From positions 121,995 through 185,994 of the forward strand of contig CAVVKA010000001.1 of NCBI GenBank assembly GCA_963748755.1: 64,000 bases of DNA, in the 5' to 3' direction. A program made the position numbers and the translations under genes. This document shows, piece after piece, positions 10,826 to 29,111 of the stretch; the stretch's first letter is position 1, and every line of letters begins with the position of its first letter. The DNA comes from an uncultured Actinomycetes bacterium (GTDB taxonomy: Bacteria; Actinomycetota; Thermoleophilia; Gaiellales; Gaiellaceae). The notes under the pieces are model-generated. The model saw nothing but the letters and a program-made list of their open reading frames with translations, was not told the DNA's origin and did no database searches.

Positions 10826-12049
10826 ATGCCGGCCAACGACTGGCGCACGAAAAGCGCACTCTGGGGAGCCGCGAAATCCGTCGCGGCGGCTAGCGGCCGG
10901 GCGATCTGGCCGGCGCTCCGACGCGTTCTCCGAGCAGCGGTCGTCGCATCTCCCCTCGTCCTCGGCGCAGCTGCCACGGCAGTGATTCTCGGCTCCAGGA
11001 GAGTGCCTCTCCCGTCGTTCAGCGGGCTGCCCGGCTCGCCGCCGGCACAGAAGGTCGTGGTGGGACCGAGCACCGGTGGAGGAGCAGGAGCGCCGAGACG
11101 GGTCGCGCCGGCGCCGTCCGGCTCGGCGCCGGCCGCCGGCGGGTCGGCCAGCGGCGGCGTCCCGGCCTCGAGCAGCTCCGGCAGTCCCGCTCCGCAGAAG
11201 AGTCAGCCCGCTTCCGGCCCACCCAGCTCGGGACCGCCTCAGCAGCAGCCTCCGCCGCAGGAATTTCCGCATCACTTCCCGCCGCCTCAGCAGTCTCCGC
11301 CTCCTCCGCCTCCGCCTCCGCCTCCGCCGCCTCCTCCTCCGCCCCCACCGCCGCCGCCCCCGCCTCCGCCGCCCCCGCCTCCACCGCCTCACTCGCCTCC
11401 GCCGCCTCCGGAGTATCGGCCTCCGCATAGTCGGGTCCCGGCCGAGCGGCCCTCGAGCCGGCACGGAGTGCCCGCGTGGGTGCTCGCCCTGATAGCGGCC
11501 CATCGAAACCACAACCAGCACGGACAAAAAGGTGGCGACTGTGCCCCGCCGCCGCCCCCGCCGCCCTGTCCGCCGAGAAGAGACGACCAGCCCGATCATC
11601 GGCCGGCGCGCCCGACCCCACCGCCCGGCCCGACGCATTCGTTCGCTCCGGGACACGACCGGCGCGGTCGCGGCGGGGGCTGGCAGGGCCAGGCCTCACC
11701 CAGCCACGGCAACACCAGCGCAGCGACCAACCAGAGTCCGGCCTCCGGCGACCAAAGCTCGGCGCCGAGCCAGGGCAATGCCCATGGCGGTAGCGGCAAC
11801 TGGTCGCCGCCAAGCCAAGGCCCGGCCCCCGGCGGCGGCAGCAGCGGGCCATCTTCCAGCCCGGCTCCCCACCCCTCCGGTGGAAACGGGGCGTGGTCGC
11901 AGGGCCAGAGCTACGGCCACAACGGCGCTACGGGGTCACAGAGCCAGGGCCACGACTACAGCGGCGGTACGCCATGGTCACAAGGCCAAAGCCATGGCCA
12001 GAGCTATGGAGGCAGCGGACGCTCCTCGCACAGCTGGGGCGGTCACTGA
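10826..12049 (+). CDS. membrane-anchored proline-rich low-complexity protein
   Basis: GGAAGGAGGGGG RBS before the ATG. One predicted TM (VVASPLVLGAAATAVILG), then Pro/Ser/Gly/Gln-rich sequence including 31 consecutive Pro. Ends 53 nt before the GGDEF gene. Confidence 0.55.
   Translation: MPANDWRTKSALWGAAKSVAAASGRAIWPALRRVLRAAVVASPLVLGAAATAVILGSRRVPLPSFSGLPGSPPAQKVVVGPSTGGGAGAPRRVAPAPSGSAPAAGGSASGGVPASSSSGSPAPQKSQPASGPPSSGPPQQQPPPQEFPHHFPPPQQSPPPPPPPPPPPPPPPPPPPPPPPPPPPPPPPHSPPPPPEYRPPHSRVPAERPSSRHGVPAWVLALIAAHRNHNQHGQKGGDCAPPPPPPPCPPRRDDQPDHRPARPTPPPGPTHSFAPGHDRRGRGGGWQGQASPSHGNTSAATNQSPASGDQSSAPSQGNAHGGSGNWSPPSQGPAPGGGSSGPSSSPAPHPSGGNGAWSQGQSYGHNGATGSQSQGHDYSGGTPWSQGQSHGQSYGGSGRSSHSWGGH
11297..11389 (+). 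repeat. 31 consecutive proline codons (CCN)31
   Basis: Counted directly: ccg/cct/ccc/cca codons from 11297 to 11389, in frame with the 10826 ORF. Confidence 0.9.
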
Positions 12050-12102
12050 GCCCCGCACGACGGCTGGTCGCTTCGCCCGGATTCGGGCTCCGGCTGCGCC
12101 TG

Positions 12103-13281
12103 ATGCTCACCCTCACCGCGGTCGCGATCTTTCCGATCGCCTTCGTCTCCTACGTGGTCGTCCAGGACGAGGTCCGCAACGTCACCCGCAACGTCGACTT
12201 CGAGGTACACAACGCCGCCCAGAGCGCCCAGGCGCGGTTCTCACGGCTGCTCGACCAGCGACAGGTGCACGCGGTCGCGGCGGCCGCTTCGCCGACTCTC
12301 CAGGCGGCAATCCGCCGGCATGACGCCAGGGCCGTCGAGCAGTTCGCACGTGCGAACGACGTGCTGATCCAGCTGCGGGGGGATGAGTACGGTCGCCGGC
12401 TCGAAGACGCTTTCGGCGCTCGCGCGCAACTCGTTGCTCATGGCCGTCAGATCGGCTCGGTCGTGGCGCAGCTGCCGATGAACGCAGAGACGCTGCGACA
12501 GCTCTCCGCGGGAGTCGCGAAGGGAGTCCGCCTCGCGTACGTCGATCTCGCAGGCCCCGTCCCTTCGGGTACGGCGCACGGTGCCACGGTGCCGCTCGAG
12601 AAGAAGGTCGGCATCCGCGCCTATCTCCCGAGCTCGATCGAGTCGCACCGCAAGAATGAGGCCTACCTCCGTGTCATCGAGGCCGGACTGCTGGCGCTCG
12701 CGGCACTGATGATTCTCACGCTCGTCCTCGCCCGCCCCCTGCTACGCACCTTCCGCTGGACGGAGGAGCAGGCGAGCGAGGCCCGCATCGACGCGCTGAC
12801 CGGGCTCGCGAACCGGCGCGCTCTCGAGGAGATCCTCGCCGCCGAGATCTCCCGCGCACAGCGCTTCGCGCATCAGCTCGCGATCGTGCTGCTCGACCTC
12901 GACCGCTTCAAGGAGATCAACGACTCCTTCGGCCACGCGGCCGGTGACGTGATGCTGCGCGCGGTCAGCCGGCTGCTCACCTCGCTCGCGCGCCAGGGGG
13001 ACACCGTCGCGCGCTGGGGTGGCGAGGAGTTCGTGGTCGTCCTACCGGAGACCGACCTCGAGGGAGCCCAGCGCTTCGCCGAGCGCCTCCGCCGCACCAT
13101 CGAGGCGCATTCGGTTGGCGACATGCAGACGAGCGCGAGCTGCGGGGTGGCGACGATGCTCCCGGAAGACAGCGTGGAAGAGTTGCTTGGGGCCGCCGAC
13201 CAGGCGCTGTACCAGGCGAAGGCGAACGGCCGAAACCGGACCGAGACCGCAGTCCGCGGCCCCCGCCCGGCCGCGGCCTGA
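12103..13281 (+). CDS. membrane-associated diguanylate cyclase (GGDEF domain)
   Basis: N-terminal TM LTLTAVAIFPIAFVSYVV, a second TM, then DALTGLANRR...RWGGEEFVVVL...GVA...ADQALYQAKANGRN. ATG at 12103 is the first start after the upstream stop. Confidence 0.8.
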   Translation: MLTLTAVAIFPIAFVSYVVVQDEVRNVTRNVDFEVHNAAQSAQARFSRLLDQRQVHAVAAAASPTLQAAIRRHDARAVEQFARANDVLIQLRGDEYGRRLEDAFGARAQLVAHGRQIGSVVAQLPMNAETLRQLSAGVAKGVRLAYVDLAGPVPSGTAHGATVPLEKKVGIRAYLPSSIESHRKNEAYLRVIEAGLLALAALMILTLVLARPLLRTFRWTEEQASEARIDALTGLANRRALEEILAAEISRAQRFAHQLAIVLLDLDRFKEINDSFGHAAGDVMLRAVSRLLTSLARQGDTVARWGGEEFVVVLPETDLEGAQRFAERLRRTIEAHSVGDMQTSASCGVATMLPEDSVEELLGAADQALYQAKANGRNRTETAVRGPRPAAA

Positions 13282-14526: not shown

Positions 14527-14841
14527 CTAGGGCAGCTCGAGGACGATCGTCCCGTCGACCACGCGCACCGGGTAGGTCTCGACGGGCTCGGTCGCCGGCA
14601 GCGAGATCGGCCGACCGGTCGAGAGCTCGAACATCGACCCGTGGCGGGGGCAGACGACGCGGCACATGTCCTCGTCCCAGTCTCCCTCGCAGAGAGGGCC
14701 GTCGTCGTGCGAGCAGCGATCCTCGATCGCATAGAGCTCGCCGCCGCAGTTGTAGACGCCGACGAAGAGCTGCCCCTCGCGGACGATCTTCGACGAGCCG
14801 GGCGGGAACTCGTCCGCCGCGGCGACCTCGATGTCCGGCAC
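14527..14841 (-). CDS. Rieske [2Fe-2S] ferredoxin-like protein
   Basis: CSHDDGPL...CPRHGSMF Rieske motifs. The GTG start overlaps the sufU TAG by 1 nt (TAGTG). Confidence 0.8.
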   Translation of the reverse strand: MPDIEVAAADEFPPGSSKIVREGQLFVGVYNCGGELYAIEDRCSHDDGPLCEGDWDEDMCRVVCPRHGSMFELSTGRPISLPATEPVETYPVRVVDGTIVLELP

Positions 14842-15281
14842 TAGAGGAGGTCGAGCTCGTCGAAGCCGGCGAGGCCGTCGGGGAGCGGCGTCCCCTTCGC
14901 CTTGTGCAGCGCGACCTTGAGCGTCGTGAGGCCGAGCATCGCGCACTTGAGGCGCACCGGAGTGAGCGGGACGCCGATCTCGGCGAGCAGCTCGTCCTTG
15001 TCGAGCGCGGCGACCTCCGCGGCCGTCCGGCCCTTCGTCATCTCCATCAGCATCGAGGTGGCCGCCTGCGAGATCGCGCAGCCGCGGCCCGAGAACTTCA
15101 CCTCGTCGATCGTCTCGCCGTCCTCGCCGAACGCGACGTAGATCGAGACCTCGTCGCCGCAGAGCGGGTTCTGGCCCTCGGCCTCGGCGTCGGCGTGCTC
15201 GATCACCCCGTGCCCGCGCGGGTTCTTGTAGTGGTCGAGGATGACCTCGCGGTACAGGCTCTCGAGACCAGCGTCGCTCAT
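14841..15281 (-). CDS. sufU: SufU/IscU-type Fe-S cluster assembly sulfur-transfer protein
   Basis: LYREVILDHYKNPRGHG...NPLCGDEV...GRGCAISQA... ATGA overlap with sufS. Confidence 0.85.
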   Translation of the reverse strand: MSDAGLESLYREVILDHYKNPRGHGVIEHADAEAEGQNPLCGDEVSIYVAFGEDGETIDEVKFSGRGCAISQAATSMLMEMTKGRTAAEVAALDKDELLAEIGVPLTPVRLKCAMLGLTTLKVALHKAKGTPLPDGLAGFDELDLL

Positions 15282-16522
15282 GCAAACACCTTACGGACGG
15301 CATGGAGGCCGTCGACGAGCTGGTCGATCTCCTCGGGGATCGTGTAGAGGTAGAAGCTCGCGCGGTTGGTCGCGGCGACCCCGAGCTTCTGCATCAGCGG
15401 CTGGCAGCAGTGATGCCCGGCGCGGATCGCGACGCCCTGCAGGTCGAGGATCTGCGCGACGTCGTGCGGGTGGATGTCCTCGAGGTTGAACGAGACGATT
15501 CCGGCGCGGCGGTCGGCGGGCGGGCCGTAGAGCTTGATGCCTGGCACCTCGGCCAGCCGGCCGAGCGCGTACGCGGCGAGCTCGTGCTCGTGCGCCTCGA
15601 TCGCGTCGAGCCCCACGGCCTCGAGGTAGTCGATCGCCGCGCCGAGCCCGACGGCCTCCGCCATCGGAGCCGTGCCCGCTTCGAACTTGTGCGGCAGCTC
15701 GCCCCACGTCGTCTTCTCGAGGCGCACCGAGTTGATCATGTGGCCGCCGGTGAGGAACGGATCCATCCTCTGCAGCAGCTCGGTGCGTCCCCAGAGCGCG
15801 CTCGCGCCGCTCGGCCCGCACATCTTGTGGCCCGAGATCGCGAGGAAGTCGACTCCGAGCGCCTGCACGTCGACCTTCGTGTGCGGCGCTCCCTGCGCGG
15901 CGTCGCAGACGTAGATCGCGCCCTGCGCGTGCGCCCACTCGGCGAGCTTCGCGACCGGGTTGATCGTGCCGAGCGAGTTCGAGATCAGGTTGGTGGCGAC
16001 GACCTTGACGCGGCCGCCGCCGGCGACGTCGTCGAGGACGGAGAGGTCGAGCTCGCCCTGCTCGTCGAGCGGGATCATCCGCAGCTCGGCGCCGGTCTTG
16101 CCGGCGATGAACTGCCACGGCACGAAGTTCGAGTGGTGCTCGAGCTCGGTGACGACGACGAGGTCGCCCGGGCCGAGGTTCGAGAGGCCCCACGCGTACG
16201 CGACGAGGTTGATCCCCTCGGTTGCGTTGCGGGTGAAGATCACCTCGCGGACGTCGGGCGCGTTGAGGAAGGCCCGGACGCGCTCGCGCGCGTGCTCGAG
16301 CGCCTCGGTCGCGCGCTCGGCCAGCAGGTAGACGCCGCGGTGGACGTTCGCGTACGAGGTCTCGTAGAAGCTGTCCATCGCCTCGAGCACCTGCCGCGGC
16401 TTCTGCGAGCTCGCGGCCGAGTCGAGGAAGGCGAGCGGCTTCCCGTGCATCTCCTGCTCGAAGATCGGGAAGTCTCGCCGCAGCGTGGGCGCGTCGAGCT
16501 TCGTTCTCGCGGTCACGGCCAT
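15278..16522 (-). CDS. sufS: cysteine desulfurase SufS (class V aminotransferase)
   Basis: FLDSAASSQKP...HHSN...SGHKMCGPSG (PLP Lys)...RAGHHCCQPL. Confidence 0.9.
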   Translation of the reverse strand: MAVTARTKLDAPTLRRDFPIFEQEMHGKPLAFLDSAASSQKPRQVLEAMDSFYETSYANVHRGVYLLAERATEALEHARERVRAFLNAPDVREVIFTRNATEGINLVAYAWGLSNLGPGDLVVVTELEHHSNFVPWQFIAGKTGAELRMIPLDEQGELDLSVLDDVAGGGRVKVVATNLISNSLGTINPVAKLAEWAHAQGAIYVCDAAQGAPHTKVDVQALGVDFLAISGHKMCGPSGASALWGRTELLQRMDPFLTGGHMINSVRLEKTTWGELPHKFEAGTAPMAEAVGLGAAIDYLEAVGLDAIEAHEHELAAYALGRLAEVPGIKLYGPPADRRAGIVSFNLEDIHPHDVAQILDLQGVAIRAGHHCCQPLMQKLGVAATNRASFYLYTIPEEIDQLVDGLHAVRKVFA

Positions 16523-16787
16523 GCTCTGATGGTAAAGGCCGTGGCCAGCCGAACCGCTCAGGTTTCTTAGATCTGAGTCTCCTCGTCGGCGGAGGCCTCG
16601 TGACGCTGGTCGTCGTCCTCGACGCGGACGTCCTCCTGGCCCGGCCGCTCGCCCGGCTCGTCGGTGGCCTCCGCCTCGCGCTGGGCGGCGATCTGGTCGG
16701 CTTCGCTCTCGTGATGTCTCGGTTCCATGAGGGCCGCGTTCCCTCTCGGTCCGTCCGGTAACCGCCGCTGGCTATCGTCCCCCGCCG

Positions 16788-18461
16788 ATGCCGAGCGACT
16801 ACATCTACACGATGTACCGGGCCGACAAGTTCTACGGCCCGGACCGCCAGGTGCTGGCCAACATCTCGCTCTCGTTCCTGCCGGGAGCGAAGATCGGCGT
16901 GCTCGGCCCGAACGGAGCCGGGAAGTCGACGCTGCTGCGGATCATGGCCGGGAAAGACGAGCCGTCTTCCGGCGTCGCGGAGATCGCACCCGGGGCAACG
17001 GCCGGGGTGCTCGAGCAGGAGCCGGAGCTCGACGCCGCCAAGGACGTGCGCGGCAACGTGGAGGACGGCGTCCGCCCGCTCCGCGACCTGCTCGACCGCT
17101 TCAACGAGATCAGCGCCGCCTTCGCCGAGCCCGACGCCGACTACGACACGCTCCTCGCCGAGCAGGCGAAGGTGCAGGACAAGATCGACCGGGGCGACGT
17201 CTGGGAGCTCGACGACCGGCTCGACCACGCGATGGACGCGCTCCGCCTGCCCGAGGGAGACCGCGACGTCGAGACGCTCTCGGGCGGCGAGCGCCGCCGG
17301 GTCGCGCTCTGCCGGCTGCTCCTCTCGGCGCCCGACCTGCTCCTGCTCGACGAGCCGACGAACCACCTCGACGCCGAGTCGGTGCTCTGGCTCGAGCGGT
17401 TCCTCGCCGACTACAAGGGCACCGTCGTCGCCGTGACGCACGACCGCTACTTCCTCGACAACGTCGCCGGCTGGATTCTCGAGCTCGACCGCGGCCGCGG
17501 CATCCCGTTCCAGGGCAACTACTCGTCGTGGCTCGAGCAGAAGCAGGAGCGGCTCGCGCACGAGGAGAAGCAGGAGTCGGCGCGCCGCCGCACGCTCGCG
17601 CGCGAGCTCGAGTGGGTGCGGGCGAGCCCGCGCGCGCGTCACGCGAAGGCGAAGGCGCGGCTCGGCGCGTACGAGCGGCTCTTCGCCGAGGAGCAGAACG
17701 TGAAGCTCGACCGCGTCGAGATCCACATCCCGTCCGGCCCGCGGCTCGGCGACGTCGTGATCGAGGCCGAGAGCGTGCGCAAGGGCTTCGGCGACCGCCT
17801 GCTGGTCGACGACCTCACCTTCTCGCTGCCGCCCGCCGGCATCGTCGGCGTCGTCGGCCCGAACGGCGCCGGCAAGACGACGCTGTTCCGGATGATCGCG
17901 GGCGAGGAGCAGCCCGACGACGGGACGCTACGGGTCGGCGACACCGTCGAGCTCGCCTACGTCGACCAGGCGCGCGCCGACCTCGACCCCGCGAGCACGG
18001 TGTGGAAGGAGATCTCCGGCAACCACGACACGATCGAGCTCGGGCGCCGCGAGGTGAACTCGCGCCAGTACGTCTCGTGGTTCAACTTCAAGGGCTCGGA
18101 CCAGCAGAAGCGCGTGTCCGATCTGTCAGGCGGCGAGCGGAACCGCGTCCACCTGGCGAAGCTCCTGCGCTCGGGCGGCAACGTCCTCCTGCTCGACGAG
18201 CCGACGAACGACCTCGACGTCGACACGCTGCGCGCGCTCGAGGAGGCGCTGCTCGAGTTCGCCGGCTGCGCCGTGGTGATCACCCACGATCGCTGGTTCC
18301 TCGACCGCGTCGCTACGCACATCCTCGCCTTCGAGGGGAACAGCGAGACGATCTGGTTCGAGGGCTCGTGGGGCGAGTACGTGGAGTGGATGAAGGAGAC
18401 GCGCGGCCCGGACGCGCTCGAGCCGCACCGGATCAAGTACAAGCCGCTCGTGCGGGGCTAA
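16788..18461 (+). CDS. ettA: energy-dependent translational throttle protein EttA (ABC-F)
   Basis: [18 protein letters not shown], two ABC cassettes (GPNGAGKST / LSGGERRR and GPNGAGKTT / LSGGERNR), 557 aa. Confidence 0.9.
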
Positions 18462-18489
18462 TTCCCGTCCGATCGGGCAACACCCGCTC

Positions 18490-18804
18490 GTGCTGACGCT
18501 CTACCAGGCCGAGTGGTGCCCGTACTCGTCGGCCGTGCGCCAGCGATTGACGGAACTCGGGATCGACTTCATCGCAAAGCAGGTCGCGCCGCGGCAGGAG
18601 GATCGCGACGGGCAACACGAGATCCCGCTGCTCGTGACGGAGGACGGCAAACGGTTCGAGGGCACGGACGCGGTGTTCGAGTACCTCACCGGGCTGAACG
18701 GGAGCGAGGGGGAGCGCGGCCACCGAGCGCAGTACCGCGCGCATCGCCGGGATCGGGAGCGTGAGACGACCCGGCAAGTGCTCGGGGAAAAATCCCCGCT
18801 CTGA
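18490..18804 (+). CDS. glutaredoxin-like thioredoxin-fold protein (single Cys, CPYS)
   Basis: LTLYQAEWCPYSSAVRQRLTELGIDF...IPLLV..DG is a Grx/GST-N fold. GTG start. The C-terminal ~30 aa are Arg/Glu-rich and may not be native. Confidence 0.6.
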   Translation: MLTLYQAEWCPYSSAVRQRLTELGIDFIAKQVAPRQEDRDGQHEIPLLVTEDGKRFEGTDAVFEYLTGLNGSEGERGHRAQYRAHRRDRERETTRQVLGEKSPL

Positions 18805-18808
18805 TGGT

Positions 18809-19038
18809 CGCGCGCTGGTGGAAGCGCTGCTCGAGTTCGCCGGCTGCGCCGTTGTGATCACGCGCGATCGCTGGTTCCTCGACCGCGTCGCGACGCACAT
18901 CCCGGCCTTCGAGGGCAACAGCGAGACGATCTGGTTCGAGGGCTCGTTGGGGCGAGTACGTGGAGTGGATGAGGAGACGCGCGGCCCGACGCCCTCGAGC
19001 CGCACCGGATCAAGTACAAGCCGCTCGTTCGCGGCTGA
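18809..19038 (+). pseudogene. degraded duplicate of the ettA 3' end
   Basis: Aligns to 18231-18461 at roughly 90% identity with three 1-nt indels. Still translates [41 protein letters not shown], then frameshifts. Confidence 0.85.
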
Positions 19039-19040
19039 GA

Positions 19041-19232
19041 TCAGCTGCTGCCCGGCCTTCTGCGAAACATCCCAAAGCGGGCGAGCCGGGCGGGGCTTTC
19101 AGCCTGGCCGAGCTCGATGTCCAGCTCCGCCGGGTCGTCGATCAAAGCCCGCTCCTGAGCGGCGAGCTCGCGATCGAGCTGCCGCCGACTCTCTTTCTTC
19201 TTCGTGCGTGAGGCGCGGATCTTGTCAAACAT
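19041..19232 (-). CDS. hypothetical small charged protein (63 aa), possibly a third gene of the SIR2/NTPase unit
   Basis: ATG at 19232, 34 nt downstream of the NTPase stop on the same strand. High GC3. No recognisable family and a weak RBS. Confidence 0.25.
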   Translation of the reverse strand: MFDKIRASRTKKKESRRQLDRELAAQERALIDDPAELDIELGQAESPARLARFGMFRRRPGSS

Positions 19233-19266
19233 GAGGCCGCTGCCAGACCGAGATTCCCGGTGCGTC

Positions 19267-22200
19267 CTACCTGAAGATCTCGTCGAGCCGTGCGACGAGG
19301 TTCCGGGCCTCCGGCCACCCTGCATCCACGAACGCATCGAGAACCGCGACCAAATCCATGAGGGGCTCTCCTTCACGCAGGATGTCGCGGTAGTCCGCCA
19401 ACGCGGTTTCCACCAACCCGGTGACCTCGCGTGCAGCTAGGGAGTCGAAGGCGTATCCGGTTGCCTGCGATGCATCAATCGTGAGACGGGTGAAATGCAA
19501 GACGTCGGCGGGAGCGCACGGAAGTGCGCCACGGAGAAACTCAACAAGATGGTGGGCCGAGCGGGCTGGCAAGCCGACTGGTTCAGACCCGCCAGCTCCG
19601 TCGCAAACAGTGCCGATCACCGGCGCGACGATTGCGAAGTATCGACACAGCGCGCCCGACTCAACTTCCGGCCGATCGTCCCTCTCATATAGCCCGGAGT
19701 TGAAGTAGATCCGCGAAAGCACGGCGTCGATAGCCTCGAACGCGCCCTTCAGACGAGGTTCATCCCGTTCCGTCGGCTCCTGTTTGGCGGCGACACTAAT
19801 TTCGTCGAACGCACGTCGAGCAAGCGCGTCAAGGGAATTTGCCGCGCGGCCAGCCGAATCGAGATGCTTGGGCTCAGAGATCCGGGCGACATCGATGAAC
19901 TCGAAGAGGTGCCAGGCGAGTGTCGACAAGTTGGCCGGATGCGCCTCAGCGATCGCCCGCTCCAGCGCGTACTCAGCCGCCTCATTGGCCCTCGCGACGG
20001 CCATCCCTACAAGCAGTGCCGCGAGATGGTCGTCGCTGGGAAGGCGGTGCTTCTCCTGGCGGAGATAGTCGGCCCTCTGAATGAGGAGCATCAATCGATC
20101 AACCACGTCGGCCTCGCGCTCGGACGTCGCCACCCGACCTAGAACGGCGCCGATGACATCAATGACCGTGGCGTTCGATTCGTCTCGCACGTAACCATCG
20201 ACGGCCGACCAGAAATCATCCGGCGCTCCGACGACCAAACCCGGCAATCCGAGCGCTACGAGATAGCGGACAGCTGGCACCGGATCCTTCGACAAGTCAT
20301 GTATTGCCGCAAGCAGTTCCGCGTCAGGCGAGATCGCGGCGATGCGCGGGAGCCCTTGGGCGGCCTCAGTGCGAGGAGCCGGAGACCAGGCGGGTGTCTT
20401 GAACTCTCCATCTCCATCTCCATCTCTAACTTCGGTGTGCTCCGGGAAGCGGTGACGCGCGGCGGCGAGAAGGACATCCCGAACAAGTGCTAGGTCGCTT
20501 TCGGACAGGTCCTTAGCGCCGCGGGAGAGCGTCTCAGCCGTCTCGGCAATACGCGTCTGCACGGTACGTTCGAGTGCGTCAGGCAGTTCGCCAGCCGAGG
20601 CGACTCTTGCCCGCACCGTGCGCAGTGTTCGGAGAACGTCTTGAACCGCCTCGGCCGAGAGTGGTTCGTTGGCAAATTCGCGGCCGAACGCTTCAAGAGG
20701 TTGGGTCGACTCCAAGAGAGTCGCGATCTCAGGCGAGTCAACGTCAACGCCTTCCTCATGAAGCCACACGTTCGCGTCGTACGGCTCCGACCAGGTTCGG
20801 AAGCTCGTCAACGGCGGGTTCGTGGCCGCCTCGTTGTCCCCAGCAACGTCAGCGCGGAGTTTGTGCGACTCGGGTTCGGTAAGGCGAGTCTCAGGAATGC
20901 GCACTATGAGCCGACCCCACCAAGGGGGCCCCTCGTCCTCCGTCGCCTGACTGATGATCGCTCGTTCGATTCTCCGCAGAACCCCGCTGTCGAGAGTCGG
21001 GGCAACGGCGCCGAGTAGATCGGCAGCCTCCGGCGCGGTCTCTGAACTATCAAGGATCGGACGAGCCTCCAGGGCTGGCGCTAGCAGCACGCCCCACGTC
21101 TCGGGCTGCTGCACGCCGAGGCCGAGGAGCCGACGCCAGACGAAGGCCACCTGAGCGACTGCCGCAACCTCGTCGAGCGCTCGAGCCGCCTCTGGGCCTT
21201 CGAGTTCGGTCAGGTAGTCGGTGACCGCTGTCATCAGCCGCTGGTGCTCATCCGCGTGGGTACCGGGGGCATCCCAGATGTAGCTGCCGTCACGCAAGAG
21301 AACAGCGTCGGTCTCCCCAATCTTGAATCGGAGAACTTCGGGCTGGTAATCGGCGGGCCTATGGGGCAGAACTTCCTTCAACTGAGTCATCTCATTGACG
21401 ACCTCGACGAGCGTCTGAAGAGCGACGCCGGGGGACTCACGGAGAAACGCGGGCGCCGCCTCGAGCAGGCTGTACTGGACCATGTCGAAGTCTTGGCGCC
21501 GGTTCGAGCGAAGCGCGACAACAATCCCACCCATATGAGTTGGGTCATCGCTTTCTTCAAGGTGCGAAAACACGCGCCGATAAAGCCTTCCCACGAGCTC
21601 AGGGTCGCTCACCCAGATCTGGTTCGCCGCATCAGCGAGCCGCCAAATCAGGTCGATCGCGAAGTGTGGTCGGCCGATCGTGTCGATGATGCGCTCGATC
21701 GCACTCCGGGACTCAGCCGGCGCGCAGTCGTAGGTCTCAGCCAGCGTTTGAACTAACCAGACACCAGCCGCACGAGTGATCTGCGCGTCTTCCATATCCA
21801 AAGCCCAAGCCAGAAGGTTCCGCGCCGCCTCATTCAAGCGGCCTCGTACTTGTGAATCCTCGGTCGCCCGCAAGGCCTGCTCGAGATAGCGCGAAACGTC
21901 CCAATAAACTTGACGCGTTGGTGTCTGCGAAATCTGAAGGGCAACGCGAGACCAGATGTCGTGGTCAATCGCGCTTTGGTTCGAAAGGGTTTGGAAGACC
22001 CTGACCACGATTCGGTTCGCGTAGTCAGTCGAACTGAGTTTCCCGAGCAAAGGCGCGATGTCCTCCGCGTCCCGCGCCTCAGCAGCGATGACCGTTGGCG
22101 GAATGACGTTCACAGCCAGGCTGATGTGCGCTTCACGGTGGGAGGCCAAAGCGTCCAGGACATTCCAGAAGGTCGAACGCGCGAAAAACCAAAGCCTCCC

Positions 22201-23235
22201 AAAGAAGAGGGCGAGGCTCGGCCTGAGGAATACGGCTCGCGATGGATCGTCGGCTAGGAAAGCCGACAGCGACGGCGCGTCGTCGTCAAGCAGCAGAACG
22301 CTAACTGCGTAGTCGTAGAGGACATTGTGAGCGAAGGCGACGCGTTGCCCGGACGAGTCGGCGTCGCGGATCACCTCATCGCTGTACAGGCCACGCCACG
22401 CGGCGCTCGCATGGGCCGTCAGAAGATCCTCTCGGCGAACGGATAACGATCGTTGGTCGACCATCCGCCGTGTCGCGTCGAGCAGCAGCGCGTGCCGCTC
22501 CGCCTCGTCGTCGGGAGATCGGACGCGAGCGAGCCAGAACCGTTCGAGCAGTTGGACCTGCGATCGAATCGCTGTGACCTCCTGCGAAGAAATGTTCGTT
22601 CCGAACAACCTGTCGAGGAGCCAAAGATGGAATGGCACCCGCATGAGGTCAAGAAGTTCCTCCGGAGCCGAGCACAGAAGGCGCGGCAGCCACGGAAGTC
22701 CCTCGACGTCCGCAAGTTCAAAGTCGTTGAGCGGCGGCACCCAGAAGTGCCGGCAGTTCGCGTCGCCCAACCTGAATCTTGGGTCGGCGGCTGCCGCAAC
22801 CTCGGGGAAGATTTCCGGCAGTTCTCTTGAACGCGTGGCGTCGTACGTACGAATGCTGGCTACTACCGTCCAATGGGTTGGGTCCCGTCGGGTGAACCGC
22901 CGGATGAGATTGAACGCGAAGCGTCGTGTTTTGTCCGACCGTGCCGCATCGAGCGCATCCATGACCAGGAGTCCTCGGCGACTCCCTCGTTCTTCCTCGA
23001 AGAACTCGACAGGGTCACCTTCGAAGCCGACTTGGGCCCTCAAGTCATCGTCTGTCTCGATCGGGGCACGATCGAGGGGCAGGTAAATGCAGTGCACGTC
23101 GGGCGAGGCGATCGCGGACTCCGCGAACTCCCTAAGCAGGAAGGTCTTTCCGGCCCCTGGCGCGCCAATGACTACGCCACTCTGCTGGGCGAAGACCGAG
23201 AAAGCCTGATCAAGAGCGGGGCGGCGAATGATCAA
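19267..23235 (-). CDS. giant NACHT/STAND-like P-loop NTPase with long helical (HEAT/ARM-like) repeat region
   Basis: Walker A GAPGAGKTFLL, Walker B LLVMDALDAA, WH-like FAHNVLYDYAVSVLL, then about 1000 aa of helical low-repeat sequence (e.g. DPVPAVRYLVALGL). TTG start in a TTGA overlap with the SIR2 gene. Confidence 0.85.
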   Translation of the reverse strand: MIIRRPALDQAFSVFAQQSGVVIGAPGAGKTFLLREFAESAIASPDVHCIYLPLDRAPIETDDDLRAQVGFEGDPVEFFEEERGSRRGLLVMDALDAARSDKTRRFAFNLIRRFTRRDPTHWTVVASIRTYDATRSRELPEIFPEVAAAADPRFRLGDANCRHFWVPPLNDFELADVEGLPWLPRLLCSAPEELLDLMRVPFHLWLLDRLFGTNISSQEVTAIRSQVQLLERFWLARVRSPDDEAERHALLLDATRRMVDQRSLSVRREDLLTAHASAAWRGLYSDEVIRDADSSGQRVAFAHNVLYDYAVSVLLLDDDAPSLSAFLADDPSRAVFLRPSLALFFGRLWFFARSTFWNVLDALASHREAHISLAVNVIPPTVIAAEARDAEDIAPLLGKLSSTDYANRIVVRVFQTLSNQSAIDHDIWSRVALQISQTPTRQVYWDVSRYLEQALRATEDSQVRGRLNEAARNLLAWALDMEDAQITRAAGVWLVQTLAETYDCAPAESRSAIERIIDTIGRPHFAIDLIWRLADAANQIWVSDPELVGRLYRRVFSHLEESDDPTHMGGIVVALRSNRRQDFDMVQYSLLEAAPAFLRESPGVALQTLVEVVNEMTQLKEVLPHRPADYQPEVLRFKIGETDAVLLRDGSYIWDAPGTHADEHQRLMTAVTDYLTELEGPEAARALDEVAAVAQVAFVWRRLLGLGVQQPETWGVLLAPALEARPILDSSETAPEAADLLGAVAPTLDSGVLRRIERAIISQATEDEGPPWWGRLIVRIPETRLTEPESHKLRADVAGDNEAATNPPLTSFRTWSEPYDANVWLHEEGVDVDSPEIATLLESTQPLEAFGREFANEPLSAEAVQDVLRTLRTVRARVASAGELPDALERTVQTRIAETAETLSRGAKDLSESDLALVRDVLLAAARHRFPEHTEVRDGDGDGEFKTPAWSPAPRTEAAQGLPRIAAISPDAELLAAIHDLSKDPVPAVRYLVALGLPGLVVGAPDDFWSAVDGYVRDESNATVIDVIGAVLGRVATSEREADVVDRLMLLIQRADYLRQEKHRLPSDDHLAALLVGMAVARANEAAEYALERAIAEAHPANLSTLAWHLFEFIDVARISEPKHLDSAGRAANSLDALARRAFDEISVAAKQEPTERDEPRLKGAFEAIDAVLSRIYFNSGLYERDDRPEVESGALCRYFAIVAPVIGTVCDGAGGSEPVGLPARSAHHLVEFLRGALPCAPADVLHFTRLTIDASQATGYAFDSLAAREVTGLVETALADYRDILREGEPLMDLVAVLDAFVDAGWPEARNLVARLDEIFR

Positions 23236-24260
23236 AGCTCGAGCATCCTTGCGGAGAAGCTCTCCGTCCGATCTGGGTCAACCAAGCGCTGTGGCTCTTG
23301 CGGTTGGCCCGCCATCGAGTCGAGCAGCTCGTCCAATCCTGAGTGATCATCCGGCAGGCCGTCGGCTCGGCCCACGTCGTAGATGATCGGCGTGATCCCA
23401 GCTTCGCGACAGCGGAATGTGACTGCGTCGCGTTGACCGTCATCTGCGGCTCCCATGATCGCGAAGTGACCGAGCTGGTGGCCCCGACCGAAGTCGCGAT
23501 CCGTAATGTCCAGCAGCTGTACGAGTGCGGGGTCATCGAGGCTGAAGCCGACAAAGAGCACTGGGTGTGCGACGAGGATTGACCAGAGCACACGACGATG
23601 AAGCGTGTCGAGCGGACCAAGGCGACGCCCCTCTCGATCTAGGTCATCGGGAGTGCTCCCAGGAGAGTCTTCCTCGCCAGCAATTGCACCGTAGCTCCTG
23701 CCATAGTCGTGTGCAGTAAGAACGAGGCGCTGTGGATCCCGGTGCTGACCGTGAGCGTGTAGGACATACCTATGACCCGCGCCCTCTCCCAGGTCGCGCA
23801 GAAAGTTGAAGACTTCGTAGGCGCGTTCGCCGCATAGGTCAAGCGCCTGGCACGGCTGATTGCCGAGCTCATGATTCGCGGCGGTCTGTGCGTACTCGAG
23901 CGCCGGGTCGTAGTTGGTGGTGACGACTCCCCTAGTACGGAGCCTCACTAGTGCCTGCTGCCGCGAGCCGAATCCCTGCCCGTGCTTCGGGCCGAAGGTT
24001 TCTTGCAGAGTCGCGTAATAGTCGTCAAGACGGCCCTCCGCCTTGAACGCGTCGCGAATTTGCTGCGCGCGTTCGAGAAGTGAAGTGCCTTCATCAAGAG
24101 ACGTCGCGGAATCGCCTAGTCCGTAGCGAAGCTCTTCCAAAAGGCGCGCCCATGGTGGATAACCGAGATCGGCCGTAGCACCCGCGCCAGCGAACAGCAC
24201 TACACGGCCGCTGGCCAGCTCGTGCACCAGTGCTCCGGGGACCGACACGCTGGCAGCCAA
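23232..24260 (-). CDS. SIR2_2-family protein (putative NAD+ hydrolase effector)
   Basis: VVLFAGAGAT Gly loop, VVTTNYDPALE, VLHAHGQHRDPQRLVLTAHDY, PVLFVGFSLDDPAL. The start is TTG at 24260, or alternatively GTG at 24248. Confidence 0.85.
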   Translation of the reverse strand: MAASVSVPGALVHELASGRVVLFAGAGATADLGYPPWARLLEELRYGLGDSATSLDEGTSLLERAQQIRDAFKAEGRLDDYYATLQETFGPKHGQGFGSRQQALVRLRTRGVVTTNYDPALEYAQTAANHELGNQPCQALDLCGERAYEVFNFLRDLGEGAGHRYVLHAHGQHRDPQRLVLTAHDYGRSYGAIAGEEDSPGSTPDDLDREGRRLGPLDTLHRRVLWSILVAHPVLFVGFSLDDPALVQLLDITDRDFGRGHQLGHFAIMGAADDGQRDAVTFRCREAGITPIIYDVGRADGLPDDHSGLDELLDSMAGQPQEPQRLVDPDRTESFSARMLEL

Positions 24261-24295
24261 CCACGCGTGGCGGATTCACGCAATGGACGCGTCGG

Positions 24296-25447
24296 CTACG
24301 CCTGAGGGATCCGAGCCTCGAGCGCTGCCGTAACGGCCTCGCGCACGGGCTCGAGCTCGATCCGGTCGAGCACTTCCTGGAAGAAGCCGCGCACGATCAG
24401 CCGCTCAGCCTCGAAGCGCGTGAGCCCGCGGCTCATCAAATAGAACATGTCCTCCCGGTTGACCCGCCCGACCGTCGCCGCATGCGTGCAGCGGACGTCG
24501 TTCGCCAGGATCTCGAGGCCCGGGATCGGCACGGCGTGCGTCGTCGGCGACAGCATCAGGTTGCGGCACTCCTGGTACGCGTTCGTCTGCTGCGCGTCCT
24601 TCTCCACGCGGATCATCCCGCGCCACACCGCCGTCGCCTCGTCGCGCAGCGCGCCCTTGAAGGCGAAGTCGCTCTCGCAGTCGGGCGCGATGTGCTCCTG
24701 GAACGTGTCGTAGTCGAGGTGCTGCGTGCCGTCGGCGAAGTACGCGCCCGTCACACGCGACGTTGCCCCGCGGCCCGAGAGGTCGTTCTGGATCCGCGTC
24801 TTGCCCTTCTTCGAGCCGAAGCCGCCGGCGACCCAGTCGAGCTCGGCGTCGCGCTCGACGCGCGCGTGGTGATTCGCGAAATGCCATGTCTCGCGAGAGA
24901 GGTTCTGCAGGGAGACGTACTCGAGCTTCGCGGCCGGCTCGACGAAGAGCTCCGTGACCGCGTTCGAGTAGGCCTCCGTGTCTGCCGCCGGTGAGGCGTA
25001 CTCCTCGATCAGCGACCCGCGCGCGCCCTCCTCGACCACGACGACGAGCCGCCAAAACGTCTGCCCCGTCACCGCGATGCGGACGTAGAGCGGCTTCTCG
25101 AGCTCGACGCCTTTCGGGATGACGACAAGCAGGCCGTGCTGCCAGAGCGCCGCGTTGTGGGCCGCGAACTTCTCGTCCCAGCCGACGAGCGAGTACAGGC
25201 GCTCGTGCTCCTGGGGAAGCGGCGCGAAGGTCACCCCGTCCGGCGCCTTCTCGATCTCGATCCCGTCAGCGGTAACCGTCGCGTAGCCGGCGACGTCGAG
25301 GTCGAGCAACGTCTCGATCTCGGCCGACGCAGCTCCCGCGAAGCTCTCGGGGTCGAAGCCGCGCAGGTCGGTGAAGCGCCAGTGCTCCTCGGTCGTGTCC
25401 GGGAGCGGCAGCGCCTCGTAGGCGGCGAGCGCGTCAGACCTCGTCAT
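24296..25447 (-). CDS. sufD: Fe-S cluster assembly protein SufD
   Basis: EHWRFTDL...AKLEYVSLQN...[41 protein letters not shown]. Confidence 0.9.
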   Translation of the reverse strand: MTRSDALAAYEALPLPDTTEEHWRFTDLRGFDPESFAGAASAEIETLLDLDVAGYATVTADGIEIEKAPDGVTFAPLPQEHERLYSLVGWDEKFAAHNAALWQHGLLVVIPKGVELEKPLYVRIAVTGQTFWRLVVVVEEGARGSLIEEYASPAADTEAYSNAVTELFVEPAAKLEYVSLQNLSRETWHFANHHARVERDAELDWVAGGFGSKKGKTRIQNDLSGRGATSRVTGAYFADGTQHLDYDTFQEHIAPDCESDFAFKGALRDEATAVWRGMIRVEKDAQQTNAYQECRNLMLSPTTHAVPIPGLEILANDVRCTHAATVGRVNREDMFYLMSRGLTRFEAERLIVRGFFQEVLDRIELEPVREAVTAALEARIPQA

Positions 25448-25814
25448 ACGCCTTGTACCTGTGGTGGAGGAGGATCCTGTTCCCGGCCGGGTCGCTGATG
25501 CCGGCGCCGTTGCAGACGCCGGAGTCCCACATCTCGCCGACCTCCAGGCCCTTCGCCTCTAGCTCCGCCTTCGCCGCCGCGACGTCAGGCACGCCGAGCG
25601 CGATCGTCGCCGGTGGGAGGGCGGCGAACTCGTACTCGTGCGTGTGCGGCGTCATCACCGCGAGGGTGACGTTCGACGCCTCGTACTCGACCCAGTCCTC
25701 GTGGTCGAGGCGCTCGTTGCGCGGCAGGCCGAGGACGTCGCCGTAGAAGTGCTTCGCGGCCTCGATGTCGTCCACCGGGACGCGGATGTAGTCGACGCGC
25801 GTGATCTCCATCAT
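25434..25814 (-). CDS. VOC (glyoxalase/bleomycin-resistance/dioxygenase) family protein, paralog 4
   Basis: MMEITRVDYIRVPVDD...DSGVCNGAGISDPAGNRILLHHRY. ATGA overlap with paralog 3. Overlaps the sufD start by 14 nt. Confidence 0.8.
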   Translation of the reverse strand: MMEITRVDYIRVPVDDIEAAKHFYGDVLGLPRNERLDHEDWVEYEASNVTLAVMTPHTHEYEFAALPPATIALGVPDVAAAKAELEAKGLEVGEMWDSGVCNGAGISDPAGNRILLHHRYKAYDEV

Positions 25815-26200
25815 GGCGTCGTCCCGTCGGGGTAGGGCGCGTAGCGGTGGTGCAGGGCGAGCCCGTTGCCGTCGGGATCCGTGAAGGCGGCGCCGTGGCA
25901 GACGCCCGAATCCCAGGACTCGCCCGTGAACTCGACTCCGGCGGCCTCGAGCTTCGCCTTCGCCTCGGCGACGTCGGGAACGCGAAAGACGATGGAGGCG
26001 ATCGGCAGCGGCGCAAACGGCGCGTCGATGTGCTCGGGCGAGACGATGGCGAGCGTGGTGTTGCCGGTCTCGAACTCGATCCACGAGCCCGTCGAATTCG
26101 GGTTCTTCGTCAGCCCGAGCGTCTCGCCGTAGAACCTGGCGGCGCGCTCGCGGTCGCGCGTCGGAACCGCGACGAAGTCGGTGCGCTGCACGTCAATCAT
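25811..26200 (-). CDS. VOC family protein, paralog 3
   Basis: DFVAVPTRDRERAARFYGETLGL...DSGVCHGAAFTDPDGNGLALHHRYAPY. Confidence 0.8.
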   Translation of the reverse strand: MIDVQRTDFVAVPTRDRERAARFYGETLGLTKNPNSTGSWIEFETGNTTLAIVSPEHIDAPFAPLPIASIVFRVPDVAEAKAKLEAAGVEFTGESWDSGVCHGAAFTDPDGNGLALHHRYAPYPDGTTP

Positions 26201-26561
26201 TCGGCGCGTACCTCCGGTGCAGCATGAAGCGATTGCCGTCGGGATCCGCGAACGGGGCCATGTGACACACGCCGGTGTCGTAGGTGTCGCCGACGAACTC
26301 GATCCCGCGACCCTCGAGCTCCTGGCGCGTCTCGGCGACGTCTGCCACGCGCAGCGCGATCGGTCCCCCGTTTCCCTGGGTGAACTCGCCGCCGATCGAC
26401 TTCGGGTCGATCAGGTACAGGAAGACGTTGTCGCCGAGCTTGAACTCGGGGAAGCCGCCTTCGCCGGTCTGCGGCAGGCCGAGCGTGTCGCGGTACCACG
26501 CCGTCGAGCGCTCCAGGTCCGAAACCGGGACCGAGACGAAGTCGACGTGCTCGACGTTCAT
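26193..26561 (-). CDS. VOC family protein, paralog 2
   Basis: ATG at 26561. VDFVSVPVSDLERSTAWYRDTLGL...DTGVCHMAPFADPDGNRFMLHRRYAP. ATGA overlap with paralog 1. Confidence 0.8.
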   Translation of the reverse strand: MNVEHVDFVSVPVSDLERSTAWYRDTLGLPQTGEGGFPEFKLGDNVFLYLIDPKSIGGEFTQGNGGPIALRVADVAETRQELEGRGIEFVGDTYDTGVCHMAPFADPDGNRFMLHRRYAPND

Positions 26562-26923
26562 GTGTACGGAGCGAACCGCTTGTGGAGCACGAGCGGGTTG
26601 CCGTCCGGGTCGAGGAACGTGGCCATGTGGCAGACACGCGTCTCGACGGTCTCGCCGACGAACTCGACGCCCTTCGCCTCGAGCTCGGCCCGCGCCGCTT
26701 CGACGTCGTCCACGTGAAGCAGCACGATGGCATTCGGCTGCGGCTTGAACTCCTCGCCCCACTCCTCTGGCATCCAGATGCCGAAGCAGGTGTCGCCGAC
26801 CCAGAACTCCGCCTTCGCGTGCTCGTCGGGACGCAACCCCAGCGTCTCGACGTAGAACTGCCGCGACCGCTCCCAATCAGTTGACGGAATGCCGACCGCG
26901 TCGACCTTCGCGATCGAGCTCAA
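26558..26923 (-). CDS. VOC family protein, paralog 1
   Basis: [24 protein letters not shown]...[27 protein letters not shown]. 4-nt overlap with the sufB stop. Confidence 0.8.
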
Positions 26924-28341
26924 CCGACCGAGCCCTCCATCTGCAGCTGGATGAGCCGGTTCATCTCGACCGCGTACTCAAGCGGCAGCTCCTTCGTGAT
27001 CGGCTCGACGAAGCCGCTCACGATCATCGCGCTCGCCTCCGCCTCGGTGAGCCCGCGCGACATGAGGTAGAAGAGCTGCTCCTCGCCGATCTTCGAGACG
27101 GTCGCCTCGTGGCCGATGTCGACGTCGTCCGCGTCGATCTTGATGTACGGGTACGTGTCCGAGCGCGACTCCTCGTCGAGGATCAGCGCGTCGCACACCA
27201 CCTTCGACTTCGAGCCGACCGCGTTCTTGTTCACCTCGAGCAGCCCGCGGTAGCCCGCGCGGCCGCCGTTCTTCGAGATCGACTTCGAAGTGATGACGGA
27301 CGTCGTGTTCGGCGCGACGTGCACGGCCTTGCCGCCCGCGTCCTGGTGCTGCCCGGAGCCGGCGAACGCGATCGACAGCACCTCGCCGTGCGCCCGCTCG
27401 CCCATCAGCCAGATCGCCGGGTACTTCATCGTCAGCTTCGAGCCGAGGTTCCCGTCGACCCATTCCATCGTCGCGTCCTCGTAGGCGACGGCGCGCTTCG
27501 TGACGAGGTTGTAGACGTTGTTCGACCAGTTCTGGATCGTCGTGTAGCGGCAGCGGCCGCCCTTCTTGACGACGATCTCGACGACTGCGCTGTGCAGCGA
27601 GTCGGTCGAGTAGATCGGGGCCGTGCAGCCCTCGACGTAGTGCACGTAGGCGCCCTCGTCGACGAGGATCAGCGTCCGCTCGAACTGGCCCATGTTTTCG
27701 GCGTTGATGCGGAAGTAGGCCTGCAGCGGCATCTCGATCGAGACGCCCGGCGGCACGTAGATGAAGGAGCCGCCCGACCAGACCGCCGAGTTGAGCGCCG
27801 CGAACTTGTTGTCGTTCTGCGGGATGATCGTCCCGAAGTACTGCTTGAACAGATCCTCGTGCTCGCGCAGCGCCGTGTCGGTGTCGAGGAAGATGACGCC
27901 CTTCTTCGTCAGGTCGTCCTGAAGCTTGTGGTAGACGACCTCCGACTCGTACTGGGCGCCGACGCCTGCGAGGTACTTCTTCTCAGCCTCCGGGATGCCG
28001 AGCTTGTCCCACGTGTCCAGGATGTCGGCCGGCAGGTCCTCCCACGACTTCGCCTGATTCTCGGTCGGCTTGATGTAGTAGAAGATGTTGTCGAAGTCGA
28101 TGTCGTTCAGGTTGCCGCCCCACTGTGGCAGCGGGCGCGCGAGGAAGTAGTCCAGGCTCTTGTGCCGGAACTTCCGCATCCACTCCGGCTCGTTCTTGTG
28201 CTCGGCGATCGCCTCGACCAGCTCGTGCGACAAGCCGCGGCCGGACTTGAAGAAATAATCCTTCGCCTCGTCGGGGTTCGAGAATCCGTACTTGTATTCG
28301 CTGCGAATTCCTTTGACGACGTCGGTCTCTGTCTGGCTCAC
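26920..28341 (-). CDS. sufB: Fe-S cluster assembly protein SufB
   Basis: GTG at 28341 after GGAGGTG, with a GTGA overlap with suf[20 protein letters not shown]...[22 protein letters not shown]. Confidence 0.9.
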
Positions 28342-29111
28342 GCAGGCACCTCCTCGGGCTCGTAGGGGGCGTAGCCCTCCTTCTCGAGCTTTTTCGCGAG
28401 CTCCGCGCCGCCCGACTCGACGATGCGGCCACCCACGAAGACGTGTACCCGATCCGGCGTGACGTAGTCGAGGATCCGCTGGTAGTGCGTGATCACGAGC
28501 GCGCCCATCTCCGGGCCGACGAGCTCGTTCACGCCGCTCGCGACGACCCGCAGCGCGTCGATGTCGAGACCGGAGTCGGTCTCGTCGAGCACCGCGATGC
28601 GCGGCTTCAGCATCGCCATCTGGAGGATCTCGACGCGCTTCTTCTCGCCGCCCGAGAAGCCGTCGTTGAGGTAGCGCGACGCGAGCTCGCGGCTCACCTT
28701 CAGGCGATCCATCTGCGCGAGGAGCTCCTTGCGAAACTCGGGGATCGCCATCGGGTCGTCGACGCCGCCGTTGCGAGCCTTGCGCACGGCGTTGATCGCG
28801 CTGCGCAGGAAGCTCGTCACCGTGACGCCGGGAATCGCGTGCGGATACTGGAAGGCGAGGAAGAGGCCGCGCTGCGCGCGCTCGTCGGCGCCGAGCTCGG
28901 TCACGTCCTCCCCCTCGAAGAGGAGGCGTCCCTCGGTGATCTCGTACGCGGGGTGACCCATCAGCGCGTACGCGAGGGTCGACTTGCCGGAGCCGTTCGG
29001 CCCCATGATCGCGTGCACCTCGTTCGTATCGACCTCGAGATCGACGCCCTTGACGATCTCCGTCCCGTCCTCGAGCGCGACGTGCAGGTTCTCCAGCTTC
29101 AGCAATGCCAT
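28338..29111 (-). CDS. sufC: Fe-S cluster assembly ATPase SufC
   Basis: LKLENLHV...[10 protein letters not shown]...FSGGEKKR...LDETDSGLD. Confidence 0.9.

Follow-up and report, generated by a model that had tools for sequence, protein, structure and literature searches.

Two adjacent minus-strand genes of an uncultured Gaiellaceae bacterium (Actinomycetota; contig CAVVKA010000001.1) were analysed as a candidate anti-phage system. The window, that is, the whole stretch of DNA studied here, is 64,000 nucleotides long. The upstream gene encodes a SIR2_2-family protein and the downstream gene a large NACHT-like STAND NTPase followed by a helical sensor. The pair had been singled out from the sequence alone (the original prediction). 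Direct reading of the window confirmed the two open reading frames (ORFs) and their TTGA overlap, in which the TGA stop codon of the SIR2 gene (23234-23232) shares bases with the TTG start codon of the NTPase gene (23235-23233). Both ORFs are full length, with neither frameshift nor premature stop, and contain all the SIR2 and NTPase motifs quoted in the prediction. The features of the two genes are listed below.

23232..24260, minus strand: SIR2_2-family effector gene, predicted NADase; 342 residues from TTG 24260, or 331 residues from GTG 24227
24174..24203, minus strand: Rossmann glycine loop VVLFAGAGAT (NAD binding), residues 20-29; aligned to ThsA IFAGAGLS
23907..23921, minus strand: TTNYD, residues 114-118, with predicted catalytic Asn116; aligned to ThsA TTNYD (N112)
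23748..23759, minus strand: HAHG, residues 168-171, with predicted catalytic histidine H170 (H168 is also conserved); inside the SIR2_2 match
23232..23235, minus strand: TTGA stop/start overlap, by which both genes are coupled translationally; read directly from the sequence
19267..23235, minus strand: STAND (NACHT-like) NTPase and sensor gene, 1322 residues
21916..23235, minus strand: NBD-HD1-WHD-HD2 NTPase module, residues 1-440; from the AlphaFold2 model, Foldseek and the SeAvs7 profile match
23143-23166, minus strand: Walker A GAPGAGKT, residues 24-31
22945-22971, minus strand: Walker B LLVMDALDA, residues 89-97
22837-22857, minus strand: sensor-1 Arg129, invariant in 45 homologues
22291-22335, minus strand: WHD His303 motif FAHNVLYDYAVSVLL, residues 301-315; H303 is invariant
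19267..21915, minus strand: C-terminal alpha-solenoid (HEAT-like) sensor, residues 441-1322, with two small beta-hairpin inserts; from AlphaFold2 and Foldseek
20245-20286, minus strand: HEAT signature DPVPAVRY

The SIR2 and NTPase proteins

SIR2 is the only Pfam domain of the 342-residue protein. The SIR2_2 profile (PF13289) matches residues 111-277 with 67.2 bits (E=2.2e-18; cut-off 24.5). Besides the motifs listed above, the protein contains LVLTAHDY (residues 179-186) and LFVGFSLDDP (residues 235-244). An alignment of 63 SIR2 orthologues from homologous loci shows that the glycine loop (G-x-G-x-S/T), NYD, H-x-H-G and F-x-GFS-x-x-D are at least 90% conserved. Matches to PADLOC and NCBIfam models do not extend beyond the SIR2 portions of ThsA and Dsr1, and the ThsA models of PADLOC align over profile positions 13-127 of 478. 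Sequence matches in the PDB are ThsA (6LHX), KomC and DSR2. No match to the PDC-M54 models was found with PADLOC. As originally proposed, the protein is thus predicted to be a SIR2_2 effector, with its catalytic Asn and His intact, and a NADase. To our knowledge, the characterised SIR2_2 defence members (ThsA, DSR1/2, SIR2-HerA, Avs5 and KomC) are all NADases.

The start codon of the SIR2 gene is ambiguous. The public annotation (P0357, 331 residues) opens at GTG 24227 and not at TTG 24260. A GGAG sequence lies 5 nt upstream of this GTG, which is probably the start. The NTPase gene begins with ATG in 60 of the 65 SIR2-bearing homologous loci analysed, versus TTG in the window. This TTG aligns with Met1 of the homologues and has a weak AAGGA 10 nt upstream. 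In homologous pairs, the NTPase start is located 24 residues ahead of Walker A; in the window it is one residue closer, through a single-residue deletion. Because of this position and spacing, we consider the TTG start of the NTPase to be real. Of the two TTG starts put forward in the original prediction, one is therefore supported and the other, that of the SIR2 gene, is doubtful. The suggestion that such starts reflect tight expression is weak, since the homologues begin with ATG and the probable SIR2 start is GTG. In the public record, the NTPase (P0001) is 1231 residues long, from Met92, and the Walker A/P-loop is lost; another annotation pipeline calls the 1322-residue TTG form (P0121). 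Automated annotation thus cuts the NTPase short, so that its P-loop disappears from the public record.

A Pfam scan of the single NTPase sequence gave only sub-threshold matches to AAA_22, AAA_16 and NACHT. The NACHT gathering threshold (PF05729) was missed, with 15.3 versus 26.7 bits; several homologues carry a precomputed match to this family. An AlphaFold2 model of residues 1-480, built with an alignment of 45 homologues, reached a predicted local distance difference test score (pLDDT) of 92.5. Its best Foldseek matches are NLRC4 (7.8e-09), NLRP7, NLRP2, NLRP3 (TMq 0.56), NLRP14, Avs4 (3.7e-08) and NAIP5, then ORC/Cdc6. Because the top structural matches are NLRs and Avs4, the module can be described as an NBD-HD1-WHD STAND of the NACHT type. 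According to this model, the large protein is a NACHT-like STAND NTPase, in agreement with what had been proposed from its motifs. Twelve residues, G24, G27, G29, K30, D93, D96, R99, R129, D132, H303, N304 and D308, are invariant across the 45 homologues. The winged-helix histidine motif noticed in the original prediction is that of H303. A search of PDB sequences with the NTPase-family profile returned one real match, Salmonella Avs7 (SeAvs7; 9N00/9N01/9YIX). In 9N00_A (E=4.1e-19), profile positions 16-384 align with chain residues 276-619, in the NTPase module. D93 and R129 are aligned with the ATP- and Mg-coordinating residues D358 and R395 of SeAvs7 (PMC12803255).

The remaining ~880 residues (441-1322) are modeled as an alpha-solenoid with a pLDDT of 90.6. 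The best Foldseek match of this region is portal-bound Avs4 (8DGF, E=7e-9, with a TMq of only 0.39), followed by importins, CAND1 and SF3B1. A HEAT-like motif, DPVPAVRYLVALGL, is present at residues 984-997. A sensor-only profile retrieved from the PDB only the HEAT repeats of the PP2A-A subunit and of INTS4; with 9N00, the E-value was 0.1, on one generic HEAT motif. 9N00 is not among the Foldseek matches of either the NTPase or the sensor model, its structure being probably absent from the Foldseek library. No match to Dsr1 models was found on the NTPase-sensor protein with PADLOC or NCBIfam. The AlphaFold2 model, Foldseek and the sensor-only profile agree, and support the view that the C-terminal region is a HEAT-like helical sensor, as first suggested.

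Pairing and effector exchange across homologous loci

More than 190 full-length homologues of the NTPase were found, mostly of 1320-1350 residues and with E-values down to 0. Together with the SIR2_2 score, such matches lie well outside what chance would give. With the sensor as the sole query, 1584 clusters at 50% identity are retrieved. Homologous loci were scanned using one genome per species. The 161 loci obtained span Poribacteria, Acidobacteriota, Actinomycetota, Bacteroidota and Latescibacterota as well as the archaea Methanosarcina and Methanothrix; 83 of them were fetched. An orthologous SIR2 ORF is located immediately upstream of the NTPase gene, on the same strand, in 67 of the 83. 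The SIR2 stop and the NTPase start overlap or are at most 4 nt apart in 59 of 65 pairs, the commonest junction being an 11-nt overlap. Moreover, the pairwise identity matrices of the two proteins correlate (r=0.86, Mantel p=0.001, 60 loci). No third gene is conserved across the homologous loci. The SIR2 and NTPase genes are therefore a conserved two-gene unit and they co-evolve. The co-occurrence that the original prediction proposed to check is thus observed, with translational coupling and, elsewhere, defence or mobile contexts.

The same prediction described the system as "split". The separate-gene form is in fact that of the majority of the family: of the 27 long family members and the 19 closest SIR2 relatives that were inspected, none fuses SIR2 to the NTPase. 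The window pair is not a degenerate fission product. We also considered a frameshifted fusion gene, because the sum of 342 and 1322 residues is close to the 1657 residues of the PADLOC model PDC-M54A. This possibility was rejected. The N-terminal 300 residues of PDC-M54A are a different, nuclease-like domain with no match to SIR2. In addition, separate genes are the norm, with junctions ranging from -20 to +4 nt and no conserved frameshift site.

A third component was rejected as well. The 63-residue ORF at 19041-19232 (minus strand), mentioned in the original prediction, does exist. Rich in Lys, Arg and Glu, it lies 35 nt beyond the stop codon of the NTPase gene. Neither Pfam nor PADLOC gave a match for it, 80 homologous loci contain no counterpart, and it is probably outside the system. 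The other ORFs downstream of the cassette have no PADLOC or Pfam match either and are not conserved across loci.

Loci without SIR2 carry other effectors. In a first group, an N-terminal SMEK_N/'Aga_REase' nuclease is fused to the NTPase. In a second one, the fused part is the N-terminal domain specific to PDC-M54A, weakly LmuA/Cap4-like. In a third group, a separate upstream gene encodes a PNP_UDP_1 'PN-superfamily effector'. Such an effector modularity is typical of sensor-effector immunity. In two Bacteroidota loci, the PNP_UDP_1 gene (310 residues) replaces SIR2 directly upstream of the NTPase gene (L074:7067-7996 and L079:2120-3046). Five Poribacteria loci (L033, L041, L046, L063 and L034) combine an upstream SIR2 gene with a SMEK_N-fused NTPase, giving two effectors per sensor. 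In Methanothrix, a GNAT acetyltransferase gene is found directly downstream of a fused-type NTPase (L071:12138-12725 and L081:12305-12820; 84% mutual identity). A GNAT gene is also located near a family member on Streptomyces and Sphingobium plasmids.

The neighbours of the homologues include type ISP restriction-modification genes, HerA/DUF87 with a methyltransferase, a Gabija-like OLD-family ATPase and a caspase-like protease. AbiEii (AbiE), GmrSD, toxin-antitoxin pairs, Tn7-like elements and IS elements or transposons are also found. Family members are carried by conjugative plasmids too.

Relation to known immune systems

The window NTPase and its sensor are a strong member of PDC-M54A, a candidate family of PADLOC known only from computation, collinear with the PADLOC profile over positions 303-1657 of 1657 (E=1.5e-194, 646 bits). 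Canonical PDC-M54A (~1620-1657 residues) bears an extra N-terminal domain of ~300 residues, Cap4/LmuA-like, that the window NTPase does not have. Canonical PDC-M54A is also followed, just downstream, by PDC-M54B (~480 residues), as on Rhizobium and Sphingobium plasmids. In contrast, the window has a separate upstream SIR2 gene in place of PDC-M54B and of the N-terminal domain. PDC-M54B was identified on a Rhizobium plasmid with E=1.2e-188. No phmmer match to it was obtained in the window or in the fetched loci L001-L083, and no PADLOC match in the downstream ORFs of the window. On Rhizobium pRLG202 (L088:8894-10336) and Sphingobium pYGP1 (L089:7954-9345), PDC-M54B has ~460-480 residues and no Pfam match. 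There, its gene is downstream of that of a nuclease-fused PDC-M54A and overlaps it by 4 nt. A D...EAK motif, possibly PD-(D/E)xK-like, is seen in its sequence.

Among solved structures, SeAvs7 alone is significantly similar in sequence to the NTPase protein, and this similarity is confined to the STAND NTPase module. The overall plan is the same, with an effector, an NTPase and a large helical sensor, and the Avs7 family also has many interchangeable effectors. However, the Cap4 nuclease of SeAvs7 is fused, whereas the window effector is a separate gene and Walker A begins at residue 24. In the profile and model searches, the window sensor showed no specific similarity to the Avs7 or Dsr1 sensor. 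The SeAvs7 NTPase fragment scores only weakly on PDC-M54A (32 bits), and the relationship is distant. A 2026 bioRxiv preprint showed that Salmonella Avs7 senses the major capsid protein of phages and relies on EF-Tu as scaffold (PMC12803255). This trigger and this scaffold cannot be transferred to the window protein, because the similarity is weak and not demonstrable in the sensor.

Avs5 (AVAST type 5) is a functional analogue, in which a STAND sensor controls a SIR2 NADase (PMC11897194, PMC12931631). In Avs5, SIR2 is part of the same polypeptide and the sensor is SAMD9-like (PMC12803255), whereas here SIR2 is encoded by a separate gene and the sensor is HEAT-like. No PADLOC Avs model matches either window protein at E<=1.

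Two other two-gene systems rely on a free-standing SIR2_2 NADase. In SIR2-HerA (Nezha), its partner is also an ATPase. The window partner, however, folds as an NLR-like STAND and not as a HerA/FtsK hexamer, and no HerA match was found on the window proteins with Pfam or PADLOC. In Thoeris, the partner is a sensor, and the window SIR2 domain is closest to those of ThsA, Dsr1 and KomC. The cassette, however, has no TIR gene (ThsB), and no SLOG, Macro or other ligand-sensing domain was found in the 342-residue SIR2 protein with Pfam or PADLOC.

Finally, the cassette resembles bNACHT systems by its C-terminal repeat sensor and by its WHD histidine, which corresponds to H443 of NLRC4. SIR2, PNPase and REase figure among the bNACHT-associated domains of Kibby et al., who describe bNACHT effectors as N-terminal fusions and report that conserved operons are rare for bNACHT genes. 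Here, on the contrary, the effector-bearing operon is conserved, and the window NTPase remains under the Pfam NACHT threshold.

The term "undescribed", used in the original prediction, has to be restricted. The NTPase is a PDC-M54A member with a module homologous to that of SeAvs7, and in this respect it was already represented. The subtype with SIR2 in trans and without the B component is an unnamed, putative variant of Avs-type immunity.

Genomic setting and proposed function

The cassette is contained in a short islet.

19037..24295, no strand assigned: horizontally acquired islet, with sufD (24296-25447) and an ABC-F pseudogene fragment (18808-19036) as edges

The GC content is 62% in the cassette region, against ~70% in the background and flanks. 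At third codon positions (GC3), it is 0.66-0.70 in the cassette genes and 0.93-0.97 in the flanking sufD, sufS, sufC and ABC-F genes. Because of this deviation from the flanking host genes, the data indicate a recent horizontal acquisition. No direct repeats that would bracket the cassette on its flanks came out of a repeat scan, and a terminator scan gave no terminators around it above expectation.

As identified with Pfam, the cassette has sufD on one side, and a glutaredoxin-like ORF and an opposite-strand ABC-F ATPase gene on the other. The pseudogene fragment (18808-19036, plus strand) separates the glutaredoxin-like ORF from the 3' end of the cassette. It repeats ~230 nt from the 3' end of the ABC-F ATPase gene, which is itself intact (16788-18461); it matches 18231-18459 with ~91% identity and is frameshifted by three 1-nt indels. 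This fragment may be the scar of an integration or recombination event at the cassette site. No repeat matching it was found at the opposite edge. The suf Fe-S genes are dispersed over 14841-29111, with sufC at 28338-29111, sufB from 26920 to ~28400 and sufD as above. Two small glyoxalase-family genes (25811-26200 and 26558-26923) are located between sufB and sufD. Beyond sufD come the cassette, the opposite-strand ABC-F and glutaredoxin-like genes, and then sufS (15278-16522) and sufU (14841-15281). Further away, a GGDEF diguanylate cyclase gene (11893-13281, plus strand, 462 residues), unrelated to the cassette, encodes a protein with the weak Cas10 palm-domain similarity typical of GGDEF proteins.

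We propose, with a probability of about 0.7, that the pair is a two-gene Avs-like (bacterial NLR-type) abortive-infection cassette with a SIR2 effector acting in trans. This proposal builds on the domain identities, the conserved catalytic residues, the pairing, co-evolution and effector swapping, and the mobile or defence context described above. The 1322-residue protein would be the receptor. Its ~880-residue HEAT-like solenoid would bind a cue of infection (a conserved protein of the phage being the most likely one) and thereby free the autoinhibited NACHT-like NTPase. The NTPase would then swap ADP for ATP, using K30, D93/D96, R129 and His303, and oligomerise, by analogy with Avs2/3/4/5/7 and NLRs. 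The oligomer may recruit and cluster the separate SIR2 protein through direct contact, again as in related systems. The SIR2 protein would be made in matched amounts thanks to translational coupling. Once clustered, it would turn on as a NADase, as expected from ThsA, DSR1/2, SIR2-HerA and Avs5. NAD+ would be depleted, and phage replication and host growth would stop.

Several observations weigh against this proposal. Both window genes use rare or ambiguous start codons, and the flanking genes identified with Pfam (~11.9-30.2 kb) are all housekeeping genes (suf operon, ABC-F, tatC). No N-terminal adaptor domain is present in the NTPase, whose Walker A begins at residue 24. No family member was found in the phage collection, and PDC-M54 is absent from the searchable literature, the family being so far a computational candidate only. 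Lastly, mean identity among homologues is 34-40% for the sensor versus 44-46% for the NTPase. Conservation of the sensor close to that of the NTPase is unusual for an arms-race sensor; it is compatible with recognition of a conserved fold.

A more specific version of the proposal is tentative, and we would rather bet against it. In this version, the cassette is a "split NLR", in which a STAND receptor of bacteria and archaea activates a free SIR2 NADase solely by recruiting it non-covalently to the receptor oligomer, with no adaptor of the death-fold or EAD type. On the same chassis, nucleases are fused and SIR2 always remains in trans. This pattern would imply that stoichiometry or assembly differs; the STAND hub could, for instance, nucleate a ring or filament of SIR2, as in SIR2-HerA. 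The unusually conserved sensor might recognise a conserved fold of phages or stand guard over a host factor, in either case one not covered by Avs1-24.

Among the alternatives, the one that survives best keeps a defence role for the pair and changes the activity of SIR2, which would ADP-ribosylate or deacylate a specific target (phage, host or the NTPase itself) or regulate the STAND protein by NAD sensing. SIR2-family enzymes include protein ADP-ribosyltransferases and deacylases. The fact that SIR2 is never fused, unlike the nucleases, hints at a different stoichiometry or role, and in loci combining SIR2 with a fused nuclease, SIR2 need not be the sole killing module. Nevertheless, the best matches of the window protein are ThsA, Dsr1 and KomC, the characterised SIR2_2 defence members known to us are NADases, and SIR2 is the only candidate effector in most loci. 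We therefore regard such an activity as unlikely.

Slightly less credible still is the idea that the cassette is an inactive or decaying remnant in this genome, effectively silent because of the TTG start, the ambiguous SIR2 start and the lack of a recognisable promoter. The departure from the ATG of 60 of the 65 homologues, the mis-start of the automated annotation at Met92 and the ABC-F pseudogene fragment adjoining the cassette would fit this idea. No sigma-70-like promoter was found for the cassette, in a scan that is uninformative in a 70% GC genome. Against decay, however, both ORFs are intact over their full length and every family-invariant residue is kept. Moreover, the TTG is exactly at the homologous Met1, coupled to the upstream stop and preceded by AAGGA 10 nt upstream.

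A non-immune role is improbable. Here, a STAND signalling or regulatory ATPase, of the kind represented by MalT and AfsR, would work with a metabolic or regulatory SIR2 deacetylase, possibly in connection with the neighbouring suf and Fe-S genes. The neighbours in the window are indeed suf genes, ABC-F and a glutaredoxin-like gene. But the suf linkage is not conserved, other loci being flanked by restriction-modification, Abi, OLD and transposon genes, and the 1322-residue protein has no DNA-binding or output domain. The patchy distribution in bacteria and archaea, the deviant GC3 and the presence on plasmids speak for a mobile accessory function, and the alternative effectors are nucleases and PNP-type toxins. 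In favour of this role, many STAND clades are not related to defence (PMC12803255).

Least probable of all, and hardly credible, is a Thoeris-like signalling in which the large protein makes or binds a messenger that activates the free SIR2 allosterically, with no physical contact: the SIR2 domain is most like that of ThsA and is free-standing as in Thoeris, but Pfam and the AlphaFold2 models revealed in the 1322-residue protein no domain that would generate a signal, be it TIR, cyclase or another, the SIR2 protein has no ligand-sensing domain and matches ThsA in its SIR2 part only, and the covalent fusion of a nuclease at the same N-terminal position in sister variants argues for activation by proximity.

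The abortive-infection cassette proposed here would be missed by current tools, because PDC-M54 detection by PADLOC probably requires the B component, absent here, and because the P-loop is missing from the NTPase as annotated automatically. As the sensor appears to differ from those of characterised Avs proteins, a new phage-derived trigger may emerge from its study. If functional, the subtype would define a fairly large, still unnamed part of NLR-like immunity in prokaryotes. It is common in Acidobacteriota, Actinomycetota, Bacteroidota and the Poribacteria that live as sponge symbionts, and methanogenic archaea have it too. It would also be a natural model in which to study effector activation in trans by a STAND oligomer, and the reason why SIR2 stays a separate protein when nucleases are fused.

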